From Nitrososphaerota archaeon (GTDB taxonomy: Archaea; Thermoproteota; Nitrososphaeria_A; Caldarchaeales; Caldarchaeaceae): DNA of 64,000 bases. The notes under the pieces are model-generated. The model was not told the DNA's origin. It did not search any database and saw nothing but the letters and a program-made list of their open reading frames with translations. The stretch is from contig JBEPYN010000002.1 of assembly GCA_041641305.1 (NCBI GenBank), positions 160,001 through 224,000 on the forward strand, given 5' to 3'. Below, one piece after another: positions 36,308-43,865 of the stretch. The first letter of the stretch is position 1; each line of letters begins with the position of its first letter. The translations under genes were made by a program, and so were the position numbers.

Positions 36308-36544
36308 AAAAACGTTCATCTCAGCGTCATCTAGAACGTTATAGTAATGGGCCATTTCATGGACATAATCAATAATGCTGAGAGTCGCCACACCTATCGC
36401 GAAACAATACTGACATAAGAGCATCATAACCTACAAACAATGCATGCGAAAAATGTATTTCACTCCATTTACGTAGAGGTGAGCGAAGAACAATGTTTAT
36501 TCTCATTGGTGGCGGTTAAACGTCATGTGTTCAAAGTGGTCGGA

Positions 36545-37008
36545 ATGGAAAACCTAGAGAAGCTTTCCGAAAAGGTAGGTCCTCGAACATTCGTCGGTGT
36601 TCCGGAAAAACCCGGGGTTTATGTGGTTAGGTGGGTGGAAAATGGAAAACCGAGAGAGACACCCAGATTTAATGGCATAGATAAAAATGGAATAATTTAC
36701 ATAGGCCGTAGTAAGAACCTTAAATCCCGCATTCGGGAATTTTGGAGGGCGTTAAAAGAAGAAAAATCAGGTGATGAAGAGGGCCCCCATTCTGGGGGAA
36801 ACACGTATTCTTTTTCAAATTCGGAAAGGTAATCAAACGGAAAGACCTTGAGGTAAAGTGGCTTGTATTGAACAATGAAAAAGAAGCTAAGCATGTGGAG
36901 CATTGTCTCATTTACAAATATGTTAGACAATATTTTGACAGGACTCTCCTAAATCTCAATGCGCACCGATGGGGATCAGAAACTGAATGCAGGAAATATC
37001 GGTTATAA
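36545..37008 (+). pseudogene. GIY-YIG nuclease, frameshifted
   Basis: PEKPGVY...IIYIGRSKNLKSRI in one frame; after a shift near 36810 the -1 frame gives FGKVIKRKDLEVKW...EAKHVEHCLI...LLN (catalytic Glu and Asn region). AT-rich relative to flanks. Confidence 0.7.
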
Positions 37009-37120
37009 CAAGGTTGGTAGGTATTCTACAAAATGGGAGAGCCTTTTGCCTAGCCCCTCTCCAGAGTAACGCTATTGATTGTGAGGCCTTTTTAGGCCTG
37101 TGGTTGGCGAAGGGTTAAGA

Positions 37121-37128
37121 TTATATAG
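37121..37128 (+). promoter_or_regulatory. TATA box (TTATATAG) for the leuA-ilvB-ilvN transcript
   Basis: Canonical archaeal TATA with a purine-rich BRE-like stretch upstream, about 110 nt before the leuA ATG. Confidence 0.6.
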
Positions 37129-37145
37129 TTCCCGAGGAGTCTTCT

Positions 37146-37187
37146 TTGAGAGGAGTGAGATTATTGCTTCGCCGGTTTGCTTTCTGA
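37146..37187 (+). CDS. Putative Leu-rich leader peptide, (M)RGVRLLLRRFAF or MRLLLRRFAF from GTG 37155
   Basis: TTG AGA GGA GTG AGA TTA TTG CTT CGC CGG TTT GCT TTC TGA between the TATA box and leuA; three consecutive different Leu codons. Confidence 0.5.
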   Translation: MRGVRLLLRRFAF

Positions 37188-37235
37188 ACTCCTCTGTCGA
37201 CGTCTCCTCTACTGTGGGTTTTGTGGTGATGTGGG

Positions 37236-38759
37236 ATGGCGTGGCGTGATTTTCTCGAGCTGAAGTTACCGGGGAGAGTCTTTGTCTTTGACACGACGTT
37301 GCGTGATGGTGAGCAGACGGCTGGGGCTGCGTTGAGGCCTGCTGACAAGGTTAGGCTGGCTGAGGCGTTGGCAGATCTTGGGGTGGATGTTATCGAGGCA
37401 GGGTTTCCGCCTGTTTCGCTCGGCGAATCCTCGGCCATCAAGGAGATAACGGGCATGGGTCTCGGCGCCAAAGTCTGTGTGCTGTCGAGGTGTGAGAAAG
37501 CCGATATAGACGCCGCCGCAAAAGTGGATCCCGAGTGGATACACGTCTTCATAGCGACCTCCGACATCCATCTCCAGCACAAGCTCCGCCTCACCCGCGA
37601 ACAAGCATACGAAAAAGCCGTCTCAGCCGTAGAATACGCGAAATCATACGGCTTCACCGTACACTTCTCAGCCGAGGACGCGACACGTACAGAGCTGCCG
37701 TTTCTGCTACGTGTCTTCAGGGCAGTCGAGGATGCGGGTGCCGACAGCATCGACATTCCCGACACGGTGGGTACAGCAATACCGTTGGCCATGAAGAAGA
37801 TAGTCACGGAGGTCAAGAACACGGTCAAAGTCCCCGTCGCAGTCCACTGCCACGACGACTTCGGACTCGCGGTGGCGAACTCGTTGGCGGGTGTGGAGGC
37901 GGGTGCCGAGATTGTCCACGCAACCATCAACGGCATAGGCGAGAGAGCTGGAAACGCGAGCTTGGAGGAAATTGTCGCCGCTCTCAGGTTTCTCTACGGT
38001 GTCGAGACCGGAATAAAGTTTGAAAAAATCTTCAGAGTTTCACGGCTTGTGGAGAGGCTCATGGGCATAACTGTGCCAAAGAACAAGGCCATAGTCGGCG
38101 ACAACGCCTTCGCACATGAAAGCGGAATACATGTACACGGCGTCCTCGGCAACCCACGCACCTACGAACCCGTCATGCCTGAAGTCTTCGGAAGAAGACG
38201 CAGAATAGTTTTCGGCAAACACTCGGGAATACACGGGCTCGAAGCCTTCCTCAGAGAATACGGCTTCACCGTAGACCGTGAGAAGGTGTCGCAGATACTT
38301 AGGCGGATCAAGGAGTTCGCCGATTCTGGTGGAAAGGTTTCTGAGGAGATTGTTCTCAACTATGCGGAGGAGGTGTATGGCCGGCGGAGCCAGCAACGCT
38401 CCTATGTCAAAAACCTGTTCCTAATGCTGGCTGGAAACGTTTTCAAGGCTCAGGTTGACTTGATGGTTGCCGGCGAGCTTGTGACAGGAGACGGTGAAGG
38501 GTCATCAGCGGTAGAGGCGGCGTTAAATGCCGTGACAAACGCAGCACGGAGAATCGCAGACTTCGAGGTAATCGACTACAAGATACATTCACCGTTAACA
38601 GGCGGCCAAAGCTCCGAGGCAGAGGTCGTCCTTGGCGTCGGAGGTGTTGAATATGTTGGCCGAGGAATTGGCCCCGACCCTTCGCTAGCCGTTGTCTCGG
38701 CTCTCACGAGCGCGGTTCACCAGTTATTGTTTGAGCAAAGGAGGCTGGAGACAGAATGA
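37236..38759 (+). CDS. leuA: 2-isopropylmalate synthase (LeuA/CimA family)
   Basis: DTTLRDGEQ, PDTVG, HCHDDFG, GIGERAGN, HESGIH, C-terminal regulatory domain; citramalate synthase not excluded. Confidence 0.82.
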   Translation: MAWRDFLELKLPGRVFVFDTTLRDGEQTAGAALRPADKVRLAEALADLGVDVIEAGFPPVSLGESSAIKEITGMGLGAKVCVLSRCEKADIDAAAKVDPEWIHVFIATSDIHLQHKLRLTREQAYEKAVSAVEYAKSYGFTVHFSAEDATRTELPFLLRVFRAVEDAGADSIDIPDTVGTAIPLAMKKIVTEVKNTVKVPVAVHCHDDFGLAVANSLAGVEAGAEIVHATINGIGERAGNASLEEIVAALRFLYGVETGIKFEKIFRVSRLVERLMGITVPKNKAIVGDNAFAHESGIHVHGVLGNPRTYEPVMPEVFGRRRRIVFGKHSGIHGLEAFLREYGFTVDREKVSQILRRIKEFADSGGKVSEEIVLNYAEEVYGRRSQQRSYVKNLFLMLAGNVFKAQVDLMVAGELVTGDGEGSSAVEAALNAVTNAARRIADFEVIDYKIHSPLTGGQSSEAEVVLGVGGVEYVGRGIGPDPSLAVVSALTSAVHQLLFEQRRLETE

Positions 38760-40486
38760 GGGCGGCTGACGCATTAGTCAAGATGATGGAGAAGAAAGGC
38801 GTGGAGTATGTCTTCGGCATACCCGGCGGAGCCAACATGCCCTTCTACGACGCTTTACGCGACTCCGACATCAAGAGTATATTGATGCGGCATGAGCAAC
38901 AGGCTGCTCACGCGGCGGAGGGCTATGGACGGGTTAAGCGGAGACCAGGGGTATGCAGCGGCACATCCGGCCCCGGAGCCACCAACCTGATAACAGGCCT
39001 CGTAGACGCCTACATGGACAGCTCACCCGTCGTCGCGATAACTGGCCAGGTTGTCCGAGCCTTCATGGGCACCGACGCCTTCCAAGAAGCAGACATCGTC
39101 GGCCTCGTCCTACCCCACATCAAATACGCCGTCACCGTCAAAGACCCGCAGAGAGTGCTTCAGGAATTCGTCAACGCCTACAACATTGCAGCACATCACC
39201 GACCCGGTCCCACGCTCCTCGACCTCCCCCGCGACGTCTTCATGGAGGAGGTGGAGGAAAACTATGACATCGAGCCCGAGCCGCTTTTCAAAAGGCCTTT
39301 GCCCGAGCCCGAAATAGAGTCCATCAAGCAGGCGGCGAAGCTGATAGCGGAGGCGGAGAAGCCCGTAATCTTGGTGGGAGGCGGCGCGGTCTACAGCATG
39401 GCTGGAAAAGAAATCCTGGAGCTGGCGGAGCACATCGCGGCACCAATAGTTACGACGACGATGGGAAAGGGAGCTGTTCCCGAGGACCACCCGCTCGTCC
39501 TTGGTGTCGTAGGCATGCATGGCAGAGTGGAGGCGGACCTCGCCATCGTCGAGTCAGACCTCGTCATATGCATCGGCTCAAGACTCTCAGACAGGGCCAT
39601 AGGCCCAGCAAAAGAGTTTGAGAAAAACCGGAAAACCATCCACATAGACATCGACGCCAGCGAGTTTGGAAAAAACGTTCGCCCAACCGTTTCTCTCCCA
39701 GGAGATGCGCGGAAAGTGTTGGGCGAGCTCGTCGAATACACCAAAGCCATCGTGGCACGCAGGCCCGAGTGCCAGTTGGCGAAAAAGCTGCGGGAAATCG
39801 GAGAAGCCTACGAGGAATACATGATGTCCATGGATGACGGCCATGTTCTACATTCTTGGAAAGTTGTCTCCCTGCTGACGGACGCGGTCCCACCCGACAC
39901 GATTGTAACCACAGGGGTTGGACAGCATCAGATGTGGGCCCAGCTTTTCTGGAAAAGCAGGGCGCCGGGAACATGGTTGACCAGCGGAGGCCTTGGAACC
40001 ATGGGGTTCGGCCTGCCAGCCGCTTTCGGCGCAAAAGCAGCAGCACCCGACAGAATTGTGATGAACCTCGACGGCGACGGCAGCTTCCTGATGACCTGCC
40101 AAACCCTCGCATGCGTATCCGATTATGAGTTGCCGGTGATTACGGTGATTTTTGACAACCGTTCCCTCGGGATGGTGAAGCAGTGGCAGGACATGTTCTA
40201 CAACAAACGGTACAAGGACGTCGAATACAATGACCGGACAGACCTTGTCAAGCTCTCCGAGGCTTTTGGCGTCGAGGCGGTTCGGGTTGAAAGCTATGAT
40301 GAGCTGTTGAAGGCTGTGATGCGGGCTGTGAGGACAAACTCGGCCCTAACAGTTGATGTGCCCGTTGACACCGGTGAGCTTGTTTTCCCGATGGTTCCGC
40401 CTGGAAGATGGCTGGAGGATGTGAAGCTACCGCCAGGGTTTGACCTCAGCCAGCGCATGGTGGCCGCGGGGAGAATGTCGACTTGA
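38756..40486 (+). CDS. ilvB: Acetolactate synthase large subunit
   Basis: FGIPGG, RHEQ.A.H.A.GY, TSGPGATN, GMHG, GVGQHQMW, SGGLGTMGFGLP, GDGSF. Confidence 0.95.
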   Translation: MRAADALVKMMEKKGVEYVFGIPGGANMPFYDALRDSDIKSILMRHEQQAAHAAEGYGRVKRRPGVCSGTSGPGATNLITGLVDAYMDSSPVVAITGQVVRAFMGTDAFQEADIVGLVLPHIKYAVTVKDPQRVLQEFVNAYNIAAHHRPGPTLLDLPRDVFMEEVEENYDIEPEPLFKRPLPEPEIESIKQAAKLIAEAEKPVILVGGGAVYSMAGKEILELAEHIAAPIVTTTMGKGAVPEDHPLVLGVVGMHGRVEADLAIVESDLVICIGSRLSDRAIGPAKEFEKNRKTIHIDIDASEFGKNVRPTVSLPGDARKVLGELVEYTKAIVARRPECQLAKKLREIGEAYEEYMMSMDDGHVLHSWKVVSLLTDAVPPDTIVTTGVGQHQMWAQLFWKSRAPGTWLTSGGLGTMGFGLPAAFGAKAAAPDRIVMNLDGDGSFLMTCQTLACVSDYELPVITVIFDNRSLGMVKQWQDMFYNKRYKDVEYNDRTDLVKLSEAFGVEAVRVESYDELLKAVMRAVRTNSALTVDVPVDTGELVFPMVPPGRWLEDVKLPPGFDLSQRMVAAGRMST

Positions 40487-40722
40487 AGTTTCTCCTCTTC
40501 GTCGAGCTCGTCAACAGCCACGACGCAGTCGCCAAAATGATGCTGACAGTCAAGCAGGGCAACCTCTCCATAGAATCCATAAACATACACAAAAGCGGCG
40601 ACGACAAGCTCTCGGCAATCCTCATGCTCGAGGGTGAGGAAAACAAAGCCGAGTGGCTCGCCCACAAACTTCTCAACTTCCCCTACTACAGGTCAACCGC
40701 AATCCTCAAACAAATCAAATGA
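40483..40722 (+). CDS. Acetolactate synthase small (ACT) regulatory subunit
   Basis: 79-aa ACT-like ORF overlapping the ilvB stop; NLSIESINI. Confidence 0.7.
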   Translation: MKFLLFVELVNSHDAVAKMMLTVKQGNLSIESINIHKSGDDKLSAILMLEGEENKAEWLAHKLLNFPYYRSTAILKQIK

Positions 40723-41261: not shown

Positions 41262-42533
41262 ATGCCTTCGAGAGCGGCCCCCACCATTATCGTGGTTTTG
41301 CTTGTTGCGGTGGTTGTTTTAGGGCTTGTGACAGAGGGTGTGGAAGCAGTACATTTACGGAGGACTAGAACCGGGACAACGTCTCAAACAACTCGTTCGA
41401 CAACTTCTTCAACTACCTCGACAGCACATACAACCACCTATTCGACAACTATAACCTTTACAACAACTGTAACCCATACGGTAACCTATTCGACGACCAT
41501 AACTTATACAACGATTGAAACATATACAACGGCACCGACGACTGTGACAAGTACAGTAACCTCGACCTCCTCCACGTCTGACTACTCGGACACGTTTCCC
41601 GCCGTTAACCCACAGATACTTGGAAACTGTCCACCGGAAGTGCATGACAGGTATTTTGTAATCGGCCCGGACGGGAGAAAGTACAGGACATGGCATCCTG
41701 TCACTGTTCCGCTGGACCCGAACAACACGGCTAGAGGATACTGCACGTTTGCTCACGAGCATGGCGATAATCCTCTACAGGGTAGCTTCAATGATTTGCC
41801 GCCTTTTGGCTACGCGGCTAAAGTGGCTGGAATGGTGCAAGAGATAGCCGCTCACGCAGGGTTCAAGGTTTTCTATAAGCCGATGTCCGGTGATGGTCTT
41901 GGTAACAACGCAGAGTGGCGCATAGTTGTCCATCAGGGGACGGCTGGTGCGAGGAGGCTCACCGAGTCTTTCCACAGCATACAAATCGACATTGTCGACT
42001 CCGCGGGGAGGGTGACACGGGTTAGTTTGATGGCTCCGACTGGTGATTTGAACCCGAAGTGTGGACCACGTGTAGGTGATAGGATAATTCCCGACGAGGA
42101 ATGTGTGAGGAGGGGGCAGTACTACGAGGTTTGGTACTTCGCTGTCCGTGTAGGAACAGGTGACATCAACGGGGCAAGATTCTTCGCAGCGCCGGGCATA
42201 GGCGTATACAACCCCATGACATACTTTAGGGTAGGGGACCTGTCGAGGGTTTATCCGATATCCAGCGTTGTCGAAGGGCTTCCCATGGGAGACCCCCGAA
42301 GCTTTTTCCTCGGAAACCAGAGAGCTGTTGAGCATCCAGACTTCGGATGGGGCAATCCAGGCCCCTCACGGTTCTGGACAGACGCATACGGCCGAGAAGT
42401 AGCGGGCAACTGTGACGCCACAAGATGCATAATGCAGACAGTTCCCACAGGATACTATGCATGGTTTGACGACGACTCTGTCTTCGACTGGCCTTGGATA
42501 GACCTGCCGCTGGGCGCCCCCGGAGGAAACTAA
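41262..42533 (+). CDS. Secreted/surface protein: signal peptide, Thr/Ser-rich stalk, uncharacterised His/Cys-containing domain
   Basis: Hydrophobic N-terminus, about 75-aa T/S run, then CPPEVHD...TWHP...CTFAHEHGDNP...HAGFK...HQG. Confidence 0.8.
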   Translation: MPSRAAPTIIVVLLVAVVVLGLVTEGVEAVHLRRTRTGTTSQTTRSTTSSTTSTAHTTTYSTTITFTTTVTHTVTYSTTITYTTIETYTTAPTTVTSTVTSTSSTSDYSDTFPAVNPQILGNCPPEVHDRYFVIGPDGRKYRTWHPVTVPLDPNNTARGYCTFAHEHGDNPLQGSFNDLPPFGYAAKVAGMVQEIAAHAGFKVFYKPMSGDGLGNNAEWRIVVHQGTAGARRLTESFHSIQIDIVDSAGRVTRVSLMAPTGDLNPKCGPRVGDRIIPDEECVRRGQYYEVWYFAVRVGTGDINGARFFAAPGIGVYNPMTYFRVGDLSRVYPISSVVEGLPMGDPRSFFLGNQRAVEHPDFGWGNPGPSRFWTDAYGREVAGNCDATRCIMQTVPTGYYAWFDDDSVFDWPWIDLPLGAPGGN

Positions 42534-42887: not shown

Positions 42888-43865
42888 ATGAAGGTGTACT
42901 ATGACAGCGACATCTCCCTCGAAGTGTTGAAGGGGAAAAAGATAGCGGTCATCGGCTATGGTAGCCAGGGCCGTGCACAGGCTTTGAACATGCGTGACTC
43001 GGGGCTTGACGTGGTTGTAGGCCTCCGTGAAGACGGCACGTCGTGGAAAAAAGCTGTCGAAGATGGTTTCAAGCCTCTGCCGATAGAGGAGGCGGCGAAA
43101 GCCGGCGACGTCATACACATCCTCATACCCGACCCCGAGCAGCCCATGCTCTACAGAGAGAAGATACAAAAGCATCTTTCGGCGGGGAAAACTCTCGGCT
43201 TCTCACACGGCTACAACATCCATTTCCGCCAAATCGTGCCACCATCCAACGTAGATGTGGTGTTGATGGCTCCCAAGTCACCGGGGCCGAGGATGCGTGA
43301 GCTCTATCTTCAGGGCAAGGGTGTGCCAGCTCTCGTCGGAGTGGGGCAGAATTATACGGGGCATGCTCTTGAGACGGCGTTGGCTATGGCGAAGGCGTGT
43401 GGATGTTCACGCGCCGGCGTGATTGAGACCACTTTCAAGGATGAGACGGAGACAGACTTGTTCGGTGAGCAGGCTGTTCTCGTTGGTGGTGTGGTTGAGC
43501 TTATCCGCAACGGTTTCGAGGTCTTGGTCGAGAACGGCTACCCAGCGGAGCTTGCATATTTCGAGGTTTTGAACGAGCTGAAGCTTATCGTCGACCTCAT
43601 CTACCAAGGCGGCATAACCCACATGCTGAAGGCTGTGTCCGACACCGCGAAGTACGGCGGTTTGACTGTGGGGCCCCAGATAGTTGATGACCATGTTAGG
43701 AAAAACATGGAGAAGGCTCTCGCAAGCATAAGGTCGGGCGAGTTTGTTGAAACATGGACAGGGAACCCGCGCAGCTACGAGATTCTCAACGACTTGATGA
43801 AGAAGATGGCGGACCACCAGATTGAGAAGGTTGGCGAAAAAATCAGGAAAATGGCGAACATCTAA
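42888..43865 (+). CDS. ilvC: Ketol-acid reductoisomerase
   Basis: [45 protein letters not shown]. Confidence 0.96.

Follow-up and report, generated by a model that had tools for sequence, protein, structure and literature searches.

A conserved, probably translated leader upstream of leuA in Caldarchaeales: a candidate leucine attenuator with a derived copy in Caldarchaeum

Does the ribosome gauge leucine supply at the head of an archaeal leuA mRNA? The question is raised by the leader of leuA at positions 37148-37249 on the plus strand of a 64,000-nucleotide (nt) stretch of DNA, termed the window here, which comprises positions 160001-224000 of contig C2 of genome G000. The LeuA protein of the window is 94-95% identical to those of metagenome-assembled genomes (MAGs) of Candidatus Caldarchaeum subterraneum, which identifies the source organism as a close relative. 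Ribosome-mediated attenuation in response to amino acids is textbook knowledge for bacteria, and in archaea, too, transcription is coupled to translation. A full-text literature search recovered no report of ribosome-mediated amino-acid (leader-peptide) attenuation in archaea. A preliminary inspection of the window, the sequence-only reading, had proposed that a mini-open reading frame (ORF) with three consecutive leucine codons serves as a leader peptide of this type. The comparative analysis described here suggests, with a probability of roughly 0.55, that the element is the Caldarchaeum copy of a conserved leuA leader that is read by ribosomes and that functions as a ribosome-mediated, probably translational, leucine attenuator. 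Across most Caldarchaeales the leader looks like a leucine-responsive translational attenuator; the window copy is a derived form without the run of leucine codons.

Of the 75 genomes in the order Caldarchaeales, 68 supplied the region upstream of the leuA orthologue. A search at the level of the class added no further genome, as the order constitutes the entire class in GTDB. The motif U-AUU-GCU-Y, which in the window occupies positions 37162-37169 and includes the overlapping codons AUU (37163) and UUG (37164), was located upstream of leuA in 45 of 45 genomes from the genera designated g1-g5, g8 and g10-g14, g1 being the genus of the window. These 11 genera belong to three families, with LeuA identity descending to about 51%. 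Seven positions of the motif are identical in all 44 distinct leaders, and the eighth is invariably U or C. The motif is preceded by a G-rich box that resembles a Shine-Dalgarno (SD) sequence and whose last G, at -6 from the A of AUU (37157 in the window), is kept in 43 of the 44. The block GAGGAGTGAGATTATTGCTTC is conserved well outside the window's genus and more so than expected by chance. As the 3' end of the 16S rRNA of the window genome, read directly, is GGAUCACCUCCC, the sequences GGAG, GGUG and GUGA are regarded as SD-like. The match to this rRNA (L255; G000:C2:678829-681974) spans 3.1 kb compared to the 1.48-kb model, and the gene probably holds at least one large intron.

The motif was absent within 330 nt upstream of leuA in 67 archaeal loci from outside Caldarchaeales, which included two Asgard MAGs, and from the leuA upstream regions of 20 genomes representing 11 other families of Thermoproteota. 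In the window genome, motif and SD-like box occur together only once. Within the order, genus g15 and family f3 possess short or AT-rich upstream regions without such a leader. A different leuA leader of ~170 nt is conserved in the Thermoproteota family f10 (L236-L238), with GAGGAGGUGU near its 5' end and the hairpin GCCCGAAGGGGGC; it has no leucine run and may be another regulatory RNA. Genome G004, a MAG, carries two full-length leuA copies (L005 and L041) whose leaders, both complete, represent two g1 subtypes (GAGGAGTGAGATTATTG and GAGGGTGGGGTTTATTG); this reflects either a mixture of strains in the bin or a real duplication.

The promoter of leuA includes the TATA box TTATATAG at 37121-37128 (plus strand), for which most relatives possess a TTTAWATA-like counterpart situated 41-51 nt upstream of the invariant AUU. 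The usual geometry of archaeal promoters places the start site ~30 nt from the first TATA base, which predicts a transcription start at 37148-37152 in the window and, because of the position of the TATA box, 12-21 nt upstream of the motif across the leaders. Alignment with a 95%-identical relative (L002) revealed similarity at the TATA box, low similarity from there to ~37148, and near-complete identity beyond; the predicted start (near 37149-37151) coincides with the onset of this near-identity. As the spacing between TATA box and motif varies whereas that between SD-like box and motif is fixed, the element is considered to act in the RNA and not as part of the promoter.

Two reading frames overlap at the motif. 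The frame that begins with UUG stops after 5-10 codons in 45 of 45 leaders, although both the type and the position of the stop vary between genera. In the window this short ORF occupies 37164-37187, comprises seven codons (MLRRFAF) and is extendable upstream to GUG at 37155 or UUG at 37146. The frame that begins with AUU GCU (Ile-Ala) remains open throughout the leader in all 45 cases, compared to 1-5 stops in the UUG frame and 0-4 in the third frame. The window version of the long ORF (37163-37249) has 28 codons, reads IASPVCFLNSSVDVSSTVGFVVMWDGVA and crosses both the SD sequence and the ATG of leuA. Conditional on an open AUU frame, a stop in the first 10 codons of the UUG frame has a chance probability of 0.25-0.59 per genus (product ~1e-5), and the product of the per-genus shuffle probabilities of an open AUU frame is 4.5e-6; both products treat the genera as independent and so overstate the significance, which counts against the reading proposed here. 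Outside g1, the stop of the AUU frame lies 5-16 nt (mostly 9-11 nt) upstream of the leuA ATG within the sequence YCUCU-UGA/UAG/UAA-GGUG, and the distance from AUU to ATG extends from 80 to 155 nt. Because the stop is held at a near-constant position while this distance varies, the AUU frame is locked over variable lengths. The differing stops, lengths and helix sequences argue for repeated maintenance of the frames, and the pattern as a whole indicates that the leader family is very probably translated.

The end of the long frame is where leucine codons accumulate. Among 34 distinct peptides from outside g1, the last eight codons are 46% leucine and 65% leucine, isoleucine and valine combined, compared to 9% leucine in the rest of the peptide. 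The tail codons for leucine are predominantly CUU (54) and CUC (54), with CUG (8), CUA (5) and UUG (4) accounting for the others, so that CUU and CUC supply 108 of 125. The run is present in eight genera, in which nearly every leader has 3-6 leucines within the last eight codons, with tails that typically end at the stop as LLVLLLW, PLLLL, LLLLLVVL, LIIIL or VLLIIIIL. In one g5 leader, an in-frame insertion of 3 nt adds a leucine codon. As a control, ORFs with a leucine run near the start of the gene were found at only 2 of 141 unrelated leuA loci; these include 80 distant LeuA loci obtained in a metagenome scan with universal LeuA peptide patterns, none of them from Caldarchaeales. The background of leucine runs in the window genome is ~8 per 3000 ORFs, none meaningful. 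A scan of upstream ORFs (uORFs) in the same genome for terminal runs of amino acids returned 47 noisy hits and no sign of other attenuators. The three leucine hits that were inspected proved to be an ornithine cyclodeaminase-family gene, an aspartate kinase gene and a gene for an MFS transporter; two of these match their profiles from position 24-31 onward, and the real start is probably further upstream.

These features can be assembled into a mechanism. The pyrimidine-rich leucine codons and the bases immediately upstream of them would act as an anti-SD sequence with two alternative partners, the 5' SD strand of the leader itself and the SD sequence of leuA. When charged tRNA-Leu is scarce, the ribosome would stall on the run and cover the anti-SD sequence, leaving the leuA SD free so that leuA and ilvB are translated. 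When leucine is plentiful, the ribosome would run off at the stop and the anti-SD sequence would re-pair. In most leaders outside g1 the best partner of the 5' SD strand lies 20-45 nt upstream of the leuA ATG, at or just before the leucine run, and the paired sequences differ between genera (GUCUGAGGG/CCUCAGAC, GCGAAGGG/CCCUUCGC, GCCGGUGG/CCGCCGGC and GGCGUGGUGGGA/UCCCGCCACGC). Cognate pairing of the 5' and 3' strands was clearly superior to foreign pairing in g2, g4, g5, g8 and g14. The consensus fold of g8 has compensatory changes in 10 of its 30 pairs and includes a CCUC/GAGG hairpin formed by the leucine codons and the leuA SD. Local folds that join the pyrimidine tract to the SD are evident in g2, g5, g10 and g14 (mean z -1.2 to -1.8), and were not seen in the window. 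In a partition-function model, masking of the 5' strand lowered the predicted accessibility of the leuA SD in g5, g14 and some other genera. The pairing supports a three-element logic of SD-like strand, anti-SD sequence with leucine run, and leuA SD, in which the direction of the response is not proven. In leaders of g10, g14, g11, g8 and the g1 subgroup g1c (for example, L192, L195, L193 and L006), the sequence AAGCG or AGCAA immediately upstream of the SD-like box can pair with UUGCU(U) in a small hairpin that holds the SD-like box in its loop, as seen in a consensus fold and in the minimum-free-energy fold of L006; this constitutes a third alternative pairing and may add to the invariance of the motif.

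A second leader type occurs in genus g7. Its leaders are devoid of UAUUGCU and possess their own 5' box, GGUGAGCAAAGUGAGCCAACUCGAAUAA. A short ORF, GUG AGC CAA CUC GAA UAA, specifies MSQLE with a single leucine codon, and a long ORF one base upstream in frame contains SVGEQSEPTRISL and terminates in ALLLL, with the stop 11 nt before leuA in seven of eight species. The pattern of short and long ORFs thus appears again in what, judged from these sequences, is an independent leader type. The g7 leaders L021-L023, L025, L030, L204 and L205 also display, ahead of the TATA box, the palindrome GAATTAGTTCAGCA...TGCTGAACTAATTC, and they possess the 5' box GGTGAGCAAAGTGAGCCAACTCGAATAA. A long-range helix of 13 bp (GAGCAAAGUGAGC/GCUCGCUUUGCUC) can form in L021, and in L030 the 5' box and the tail, which ends in ILL, are in different frames.

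Where does the window copy stand within this family? It shares the placement of the TATA box relative to leuA, the SD-like box 5 nt before the motif, the UUG ORF of 5-10 codons and the open AUU frame; the last eight codons of its long ORF are not rich in leucine, isoleucine and valine. More generally, g1 keeps the promoter, the SD-like box, the invariant motif, the short ORF, the open AUU frame and the helix between strands A and B. Strand A (37148-37158; GAGAGGAGUGA) is the 5' purine strand that contains the SD-like box, and strand B (37188-37195; ACUCCUCU) is the proximal pyrimidine strand, located directly 3' of the short-ORF stop, which pairs with 37148-37156 in a duplex of -15.4 kcal/mol. 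An RNAalifold consensus of 11 g1 leaders includes this helix, with three covarying pairs and compensation of the A-U/G-C and G-C/U-G kind. The g1 leader is shorter (73-88 nt from AUU to ATG), and its long frame passes across the leuA SD and ATG to stop 14 nt inside leuA, or 22 nt in one leader. The SD sequence GGUGAU, a perfect 6-nt match to the anti-SD sequence, and the ATG at 37236 together span 37225-37238; this ATG is the first start past the in-frame TGA at 37227, and the LeuA N-terminus MAWR is conserved. Within g1 alone, the probability of an open AUU frame is 0.3-0.7 per sequence, which is weak evidence for translation. The SD-like box with UUG or AUU is present in the window, and of leucine codons only UUA-UUG-CUU remains, at or before the start. 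The window copy probably still couples translation of leuA to translation and structure of the leader. As this copy has no leucine run and its long frame overlaps the leuA start, leucine sensing by it is unproven; the UUG-CUU (UUA) codons at the start are the only ones on which sensing could depend. By losing the run and keeping the remainder of the leader, Caldarchaeum illustrates how sensors of this kind decay or become rewired.

Several observations weigh against an attenuator. The long ORF of the window has one leucine codon and no run, and its tail, VVMWDGVA, has none. The run is also missing from g3 and g4; g2, of the same family, keeps it. The CUCCUCU boxes of the window read Ser-Ser in the AUU frame. 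Leu-Leu is specified by these boxes in the third frame alone (ORF 37177-37263), and this frame is not maintained as an ORF across the genus. The minimum free energy of window positions 37140-37245 equals that of shuffled sequences (z -0.07), and the 3' part is no more favorable (z +0.85). Cognate pairing was no better than foreign pairing in g1, g3, g10, g12 and g13, where generic complementarity of purines and pyrimidines performs equally well. In the partition-function model, masking of the first leucine codon produced only small and mixed increases in accessibility. The leucine codons of the Streptomyces leuA leader did not, when mutated, behave as classical attenuation predicts (reported in PMC1262725), and consequently the pairing of a leucine run with an SD sequence is not proof of sensing by the ribosome. 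Finally, AUG, GUG and UUG are all missing from the long frame of most genera over the interval from the upstream stop to a dozen codons past the motif. The g7 codon that is equivalent to AUU is AGU, which is unable to initiate, and we know of no documented AUU start in archaea.

How, then, would ribosomes enter the long frame? Sequence conservation singles out AUU as the only conserved candidate start, preceded by a U (-1) that is likewise invariant. In g12, the frame has a UGA three codons upstream of AUU. An upstream GUG was rejected as the common start, as it is in frame only in g5, part of g8 and the g1 subgroup g1d. Termination followed by reinitiation at the codon that overlaps the short-ORF stop was likewise rejected as a general route, this codon being mostly CUA, GUA or UUA by eye. 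Two possibilities are entertained: competing initiation at AUU and UUG from a single SD sequence, or a one-base leftward shift from a canonical start. A specific version of the latter, in which the invariant U-AUU-G-CU-Y is a leucine-sensing frame selector, is a long shot. Ribosomes would start at UUG with the leucine codon CUY in the A site; charged Leu-tRNA would lead to synthesis of the peptide of 5-10 residues and exit. With an empty A site, the initiator tRNA would re-pair one base upstream on AUU (two of three bases match with either codon), GCU would be read, and the ribosome would enter the long frame towards the leucine run and the leuA SD. Both AUU and UUG are invariant, and the pyrimidine at +6 is explained solely by the wobble position of a CUY leucine codon in the UUG frame, having no rationale in the AUU frame. 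The g7 leaders also fit, as they combine a short canonical ORF containing a leucine codon with a startless long ORF, one base upstream in frame, that ends in a leucine run. The frame selector is weakened by the lack of a slippery heptamer and by the poor re-pairing expected in g7. Whichever route is used, a long conserved ORF that has no canonical start and overlaps a short ORF at an invariant AUUG bears on non-AUG initiation and frame choice in archaea.

The translational attenuator with its run in the AUU frame has to be weighed against the mechanism offered by the sequence-only reading, in which translation of the short ORF begins at GUG 37155 or UUG 37146 and low leucine stalls the ribosome at UUA-UUG-CUU. 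The stall would decide between the pairings AGAGGAG:ACUCCUCU and AGAGGAG:CUCCUCU or would control termination at the U tract. The positions on which it was built proved accurate: the TATA box (37121-37128), GGTGA(T) (37225-37230), the leuA ATG (37236), the TTTT tract (37219-37222) and AGGCCT-TTTT-AGGCCT (37084-37099) are as described, as is the mini-ORF with TTG 37146 or GTG 37155, TTA-TTG-CTT at 37161-37169 and TGA at 37185-37187. In-frame GUG or UUG codons 3-5 codons upstream of the UUG exist in family f1 (except g1d), g10, g11, g13 and g14, giving M-x-L-L-L or M-V-G-I-L-L; the pyrimidine at +6 suits a CUY leucine codon in the UUG frame; the length of the short ORF is conserved, its stop abuts the proximal pairing partner, and the g1 leaders carry U4-5 tracts. 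The mechanism is nonetheless unlikely. TAG directly precedes UUA in g5, and g8, g12 and g1d have no upstream in-frame start. UUA is replaced elsewhere by CUA, GUA or AUA. As the motif is kept in spite of the TAG in g5 or GTA or ATA in place of TTA, TTA-TTG-CTT does not behave as a conserved leucine run. A switch in termination is not the mechanism common to the leaders: no hairpin-plus-T terminator was detected on the plus strand, and the tract of four to five U residues (U4 at 37219-37222, upstream of the leuA SD) is specific to the genus and absent from g5 and g8.

Of the two proposed helices, AGAGGAG(T) at 37149-37156 is complementary to both partners. The pairing with ACTCCTCT at 37188-37195 covaries within g1; the distal CTCCTCT (37204-37210) is a second, alternative partner of strand A by sequence, is confined to the C. 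subterraneum clade (L001, L002 and L031) and so lacks wider conservation, and the fold is no better than that of shuffled sequences. What survives of the leader-peptide proposal is a conserved, apparently translated leader with an SD-like strand that pairs with a downstream CUCCUC, and a leucine run in the relatives; the particular run that was proposed does not. Likewise, the suggested comparison of leuA upstream regions did disclose a conserved uORF with a leucine run, although this is a run of CUY codons in the AUU frame, one nt upstream, close to the leuA SD and missing in g1.

About as improbable is an explanation that dispenses with the ribosome, in which leuA is controlled by an RNA-binding regulator that recognizes UAUUGCU and the G-rich box, or by a small-molecule-binding fold to which the two belong, with the frames as by-products. 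Seven invariant bases, including the U at -1, exceed the needs of a start codon; the long-range closing helix and the covarying internal hairpins resemble riboswitch architecture; and the authors who described the actinobacterial LEU element favored a protein regulator (PMC1262725). A riboswitch is not borne out, as no conserved unpaired bases exist beyond the motif of 7-8 nt at the putative start and the interior varies in sequence and length. A scan of the window leader against Rfam (cmscan, E<=10) produced no family match, RF00512 included, and a full-text search retrieved no paper on a leuA-Halobacteria RNA motif. Moreover, such an explanation cannot account for the locking of the frame between the motif and a stop at about -10 over 80-155 nt, for the C-U-Y periodicity of the tail, or for the short ORF. 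Very improbable is a role of the conserved block in the DNA, as an operator at which a transcription factor (of the Lrp type, for example) binds just downstream of the start site. The block does sit at about +10 to +20, a frequent location of archaeal repressor sites, and is invariant at the DNA level. Its distance from the TATA box, however, differs by up to 10 nt between leaders, in contrast to the constant distance from the SD-like box; the motif is without dyad symmetry, and the ORF and leucine-run signals downstream would be left unexplained.

The gene that follows the leader, leuA (37236-38759, plus strand), encodes 2-isopropylmalate synthase of 507 amino acids (aa) including the C-terminal regulatory part (NCBIfam NF002085, 554.6 bits, cutoff 517). 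It is the first gene of a series that continues with ilvB, for the large subunit of acetolactate synthase, and an ORF of 79 aa. The arrangement had been described as leuA-ilvB-ilvN, and the first two assignments hold; the 79-aa ORF (40483-40722), which overlaps the ilvB stop, has no Pfam or NCBIfam match at E<=0.01 to support its designation as ilvN. The same search returned no match for the 423-aa ORF that comes next (41262-42533), and ilvC is located at 42888-43865, after these two unassigned ORFs downstream of ilvB. ARAGORN identified only 35 tRNAs in the window genome, with a single tRNA-Leu (CAG) among them. Immediately upstream of the leuA promoter, positions 36440-37069 are AT-richer and include a 130-aa ORF with a weak match to GIY-YIG (E 0.004, below the Pfam cutoff) that is followed by short ORFs in other frames; the segment looks like a decayed GIY-YIG nuclease gene. 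As the 95%-identical relative is unrelated in this region, the segment represents a synteny break or an insertion that ends at the TATA box. The AGGCCT hairpin (37084-37099) and everything upstream of it are not common to the closest relative. A 13-mer of the leuA leader, ATTATTGCTTCGC, recurs outside the window at G000:C2 ~80,780-80,850 on the minus strand, within an ORF of 17 codons (MASIIASLMLVLDILLWY) that begins 3 nt past a TATA-like box and has no clear downstream gene.

An order-wide leader whose leucine run is locked in frame beside the ribosome-binding site (RBS) of leuA provides a testable candidate for attenuation in an archaeal lineage of the TACK group. In the ermC and cat leaders, stalled ribosomes bring about translational attenuation. 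For archaea, one Ribo-seq paper refers to uORFs in generic terms. The nearest described system is the LEU element of actinobacteria, in which a uORF with a leucine run precedes leuA and the run pairs with the leuA SD (PMC1262725; Seliverstov et al., 2005), and the closest demonstrated mechanism that of the mycobacterial polycysteine uORFs, which are leaderless and in which stalled ribosomes block a duplex that sequesters the RBS of the next gene (bioRxiv 10.1101/834739). The LEU element and the Caldarchaeales leader both place the uORF directly before leuA, are predicted to pair the run with the SD at the base of a compact fold, have no obvious terminator and are proposed to control translation initiation. 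The LEU element differs in being bacterial and in having no sequence similarity to the Caldarchaeales leader. The latter is distinguished by the invariant UAUUGCUY, two overlapping frames, a long frame without canonical start and a uORF stop inside the leuA SD, and the window copy diverges further from the LEU element in having no leucine run. With leuL (RF00512) and other classical attenuators, the Caldarchaeales leader has in common an ORF rich in codons for the end product, at which the ribosome would sense charged tRNA. Unlike the leuL type, it has no pair of terminator and antiterminator with a U run and no match in Rfam, its leucine run adjoins the SD at the very 3' end instead of lying in a region 1, and its host is archaeal. 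The polycysteine uORFs and the ermC and cat leaders differ in using AUG or GUG starts and in responding to another amino acid or to an antibiotic, and they have been established experimentally, whereas the Caldarchaeales leader is deduced from comparison of genomes.

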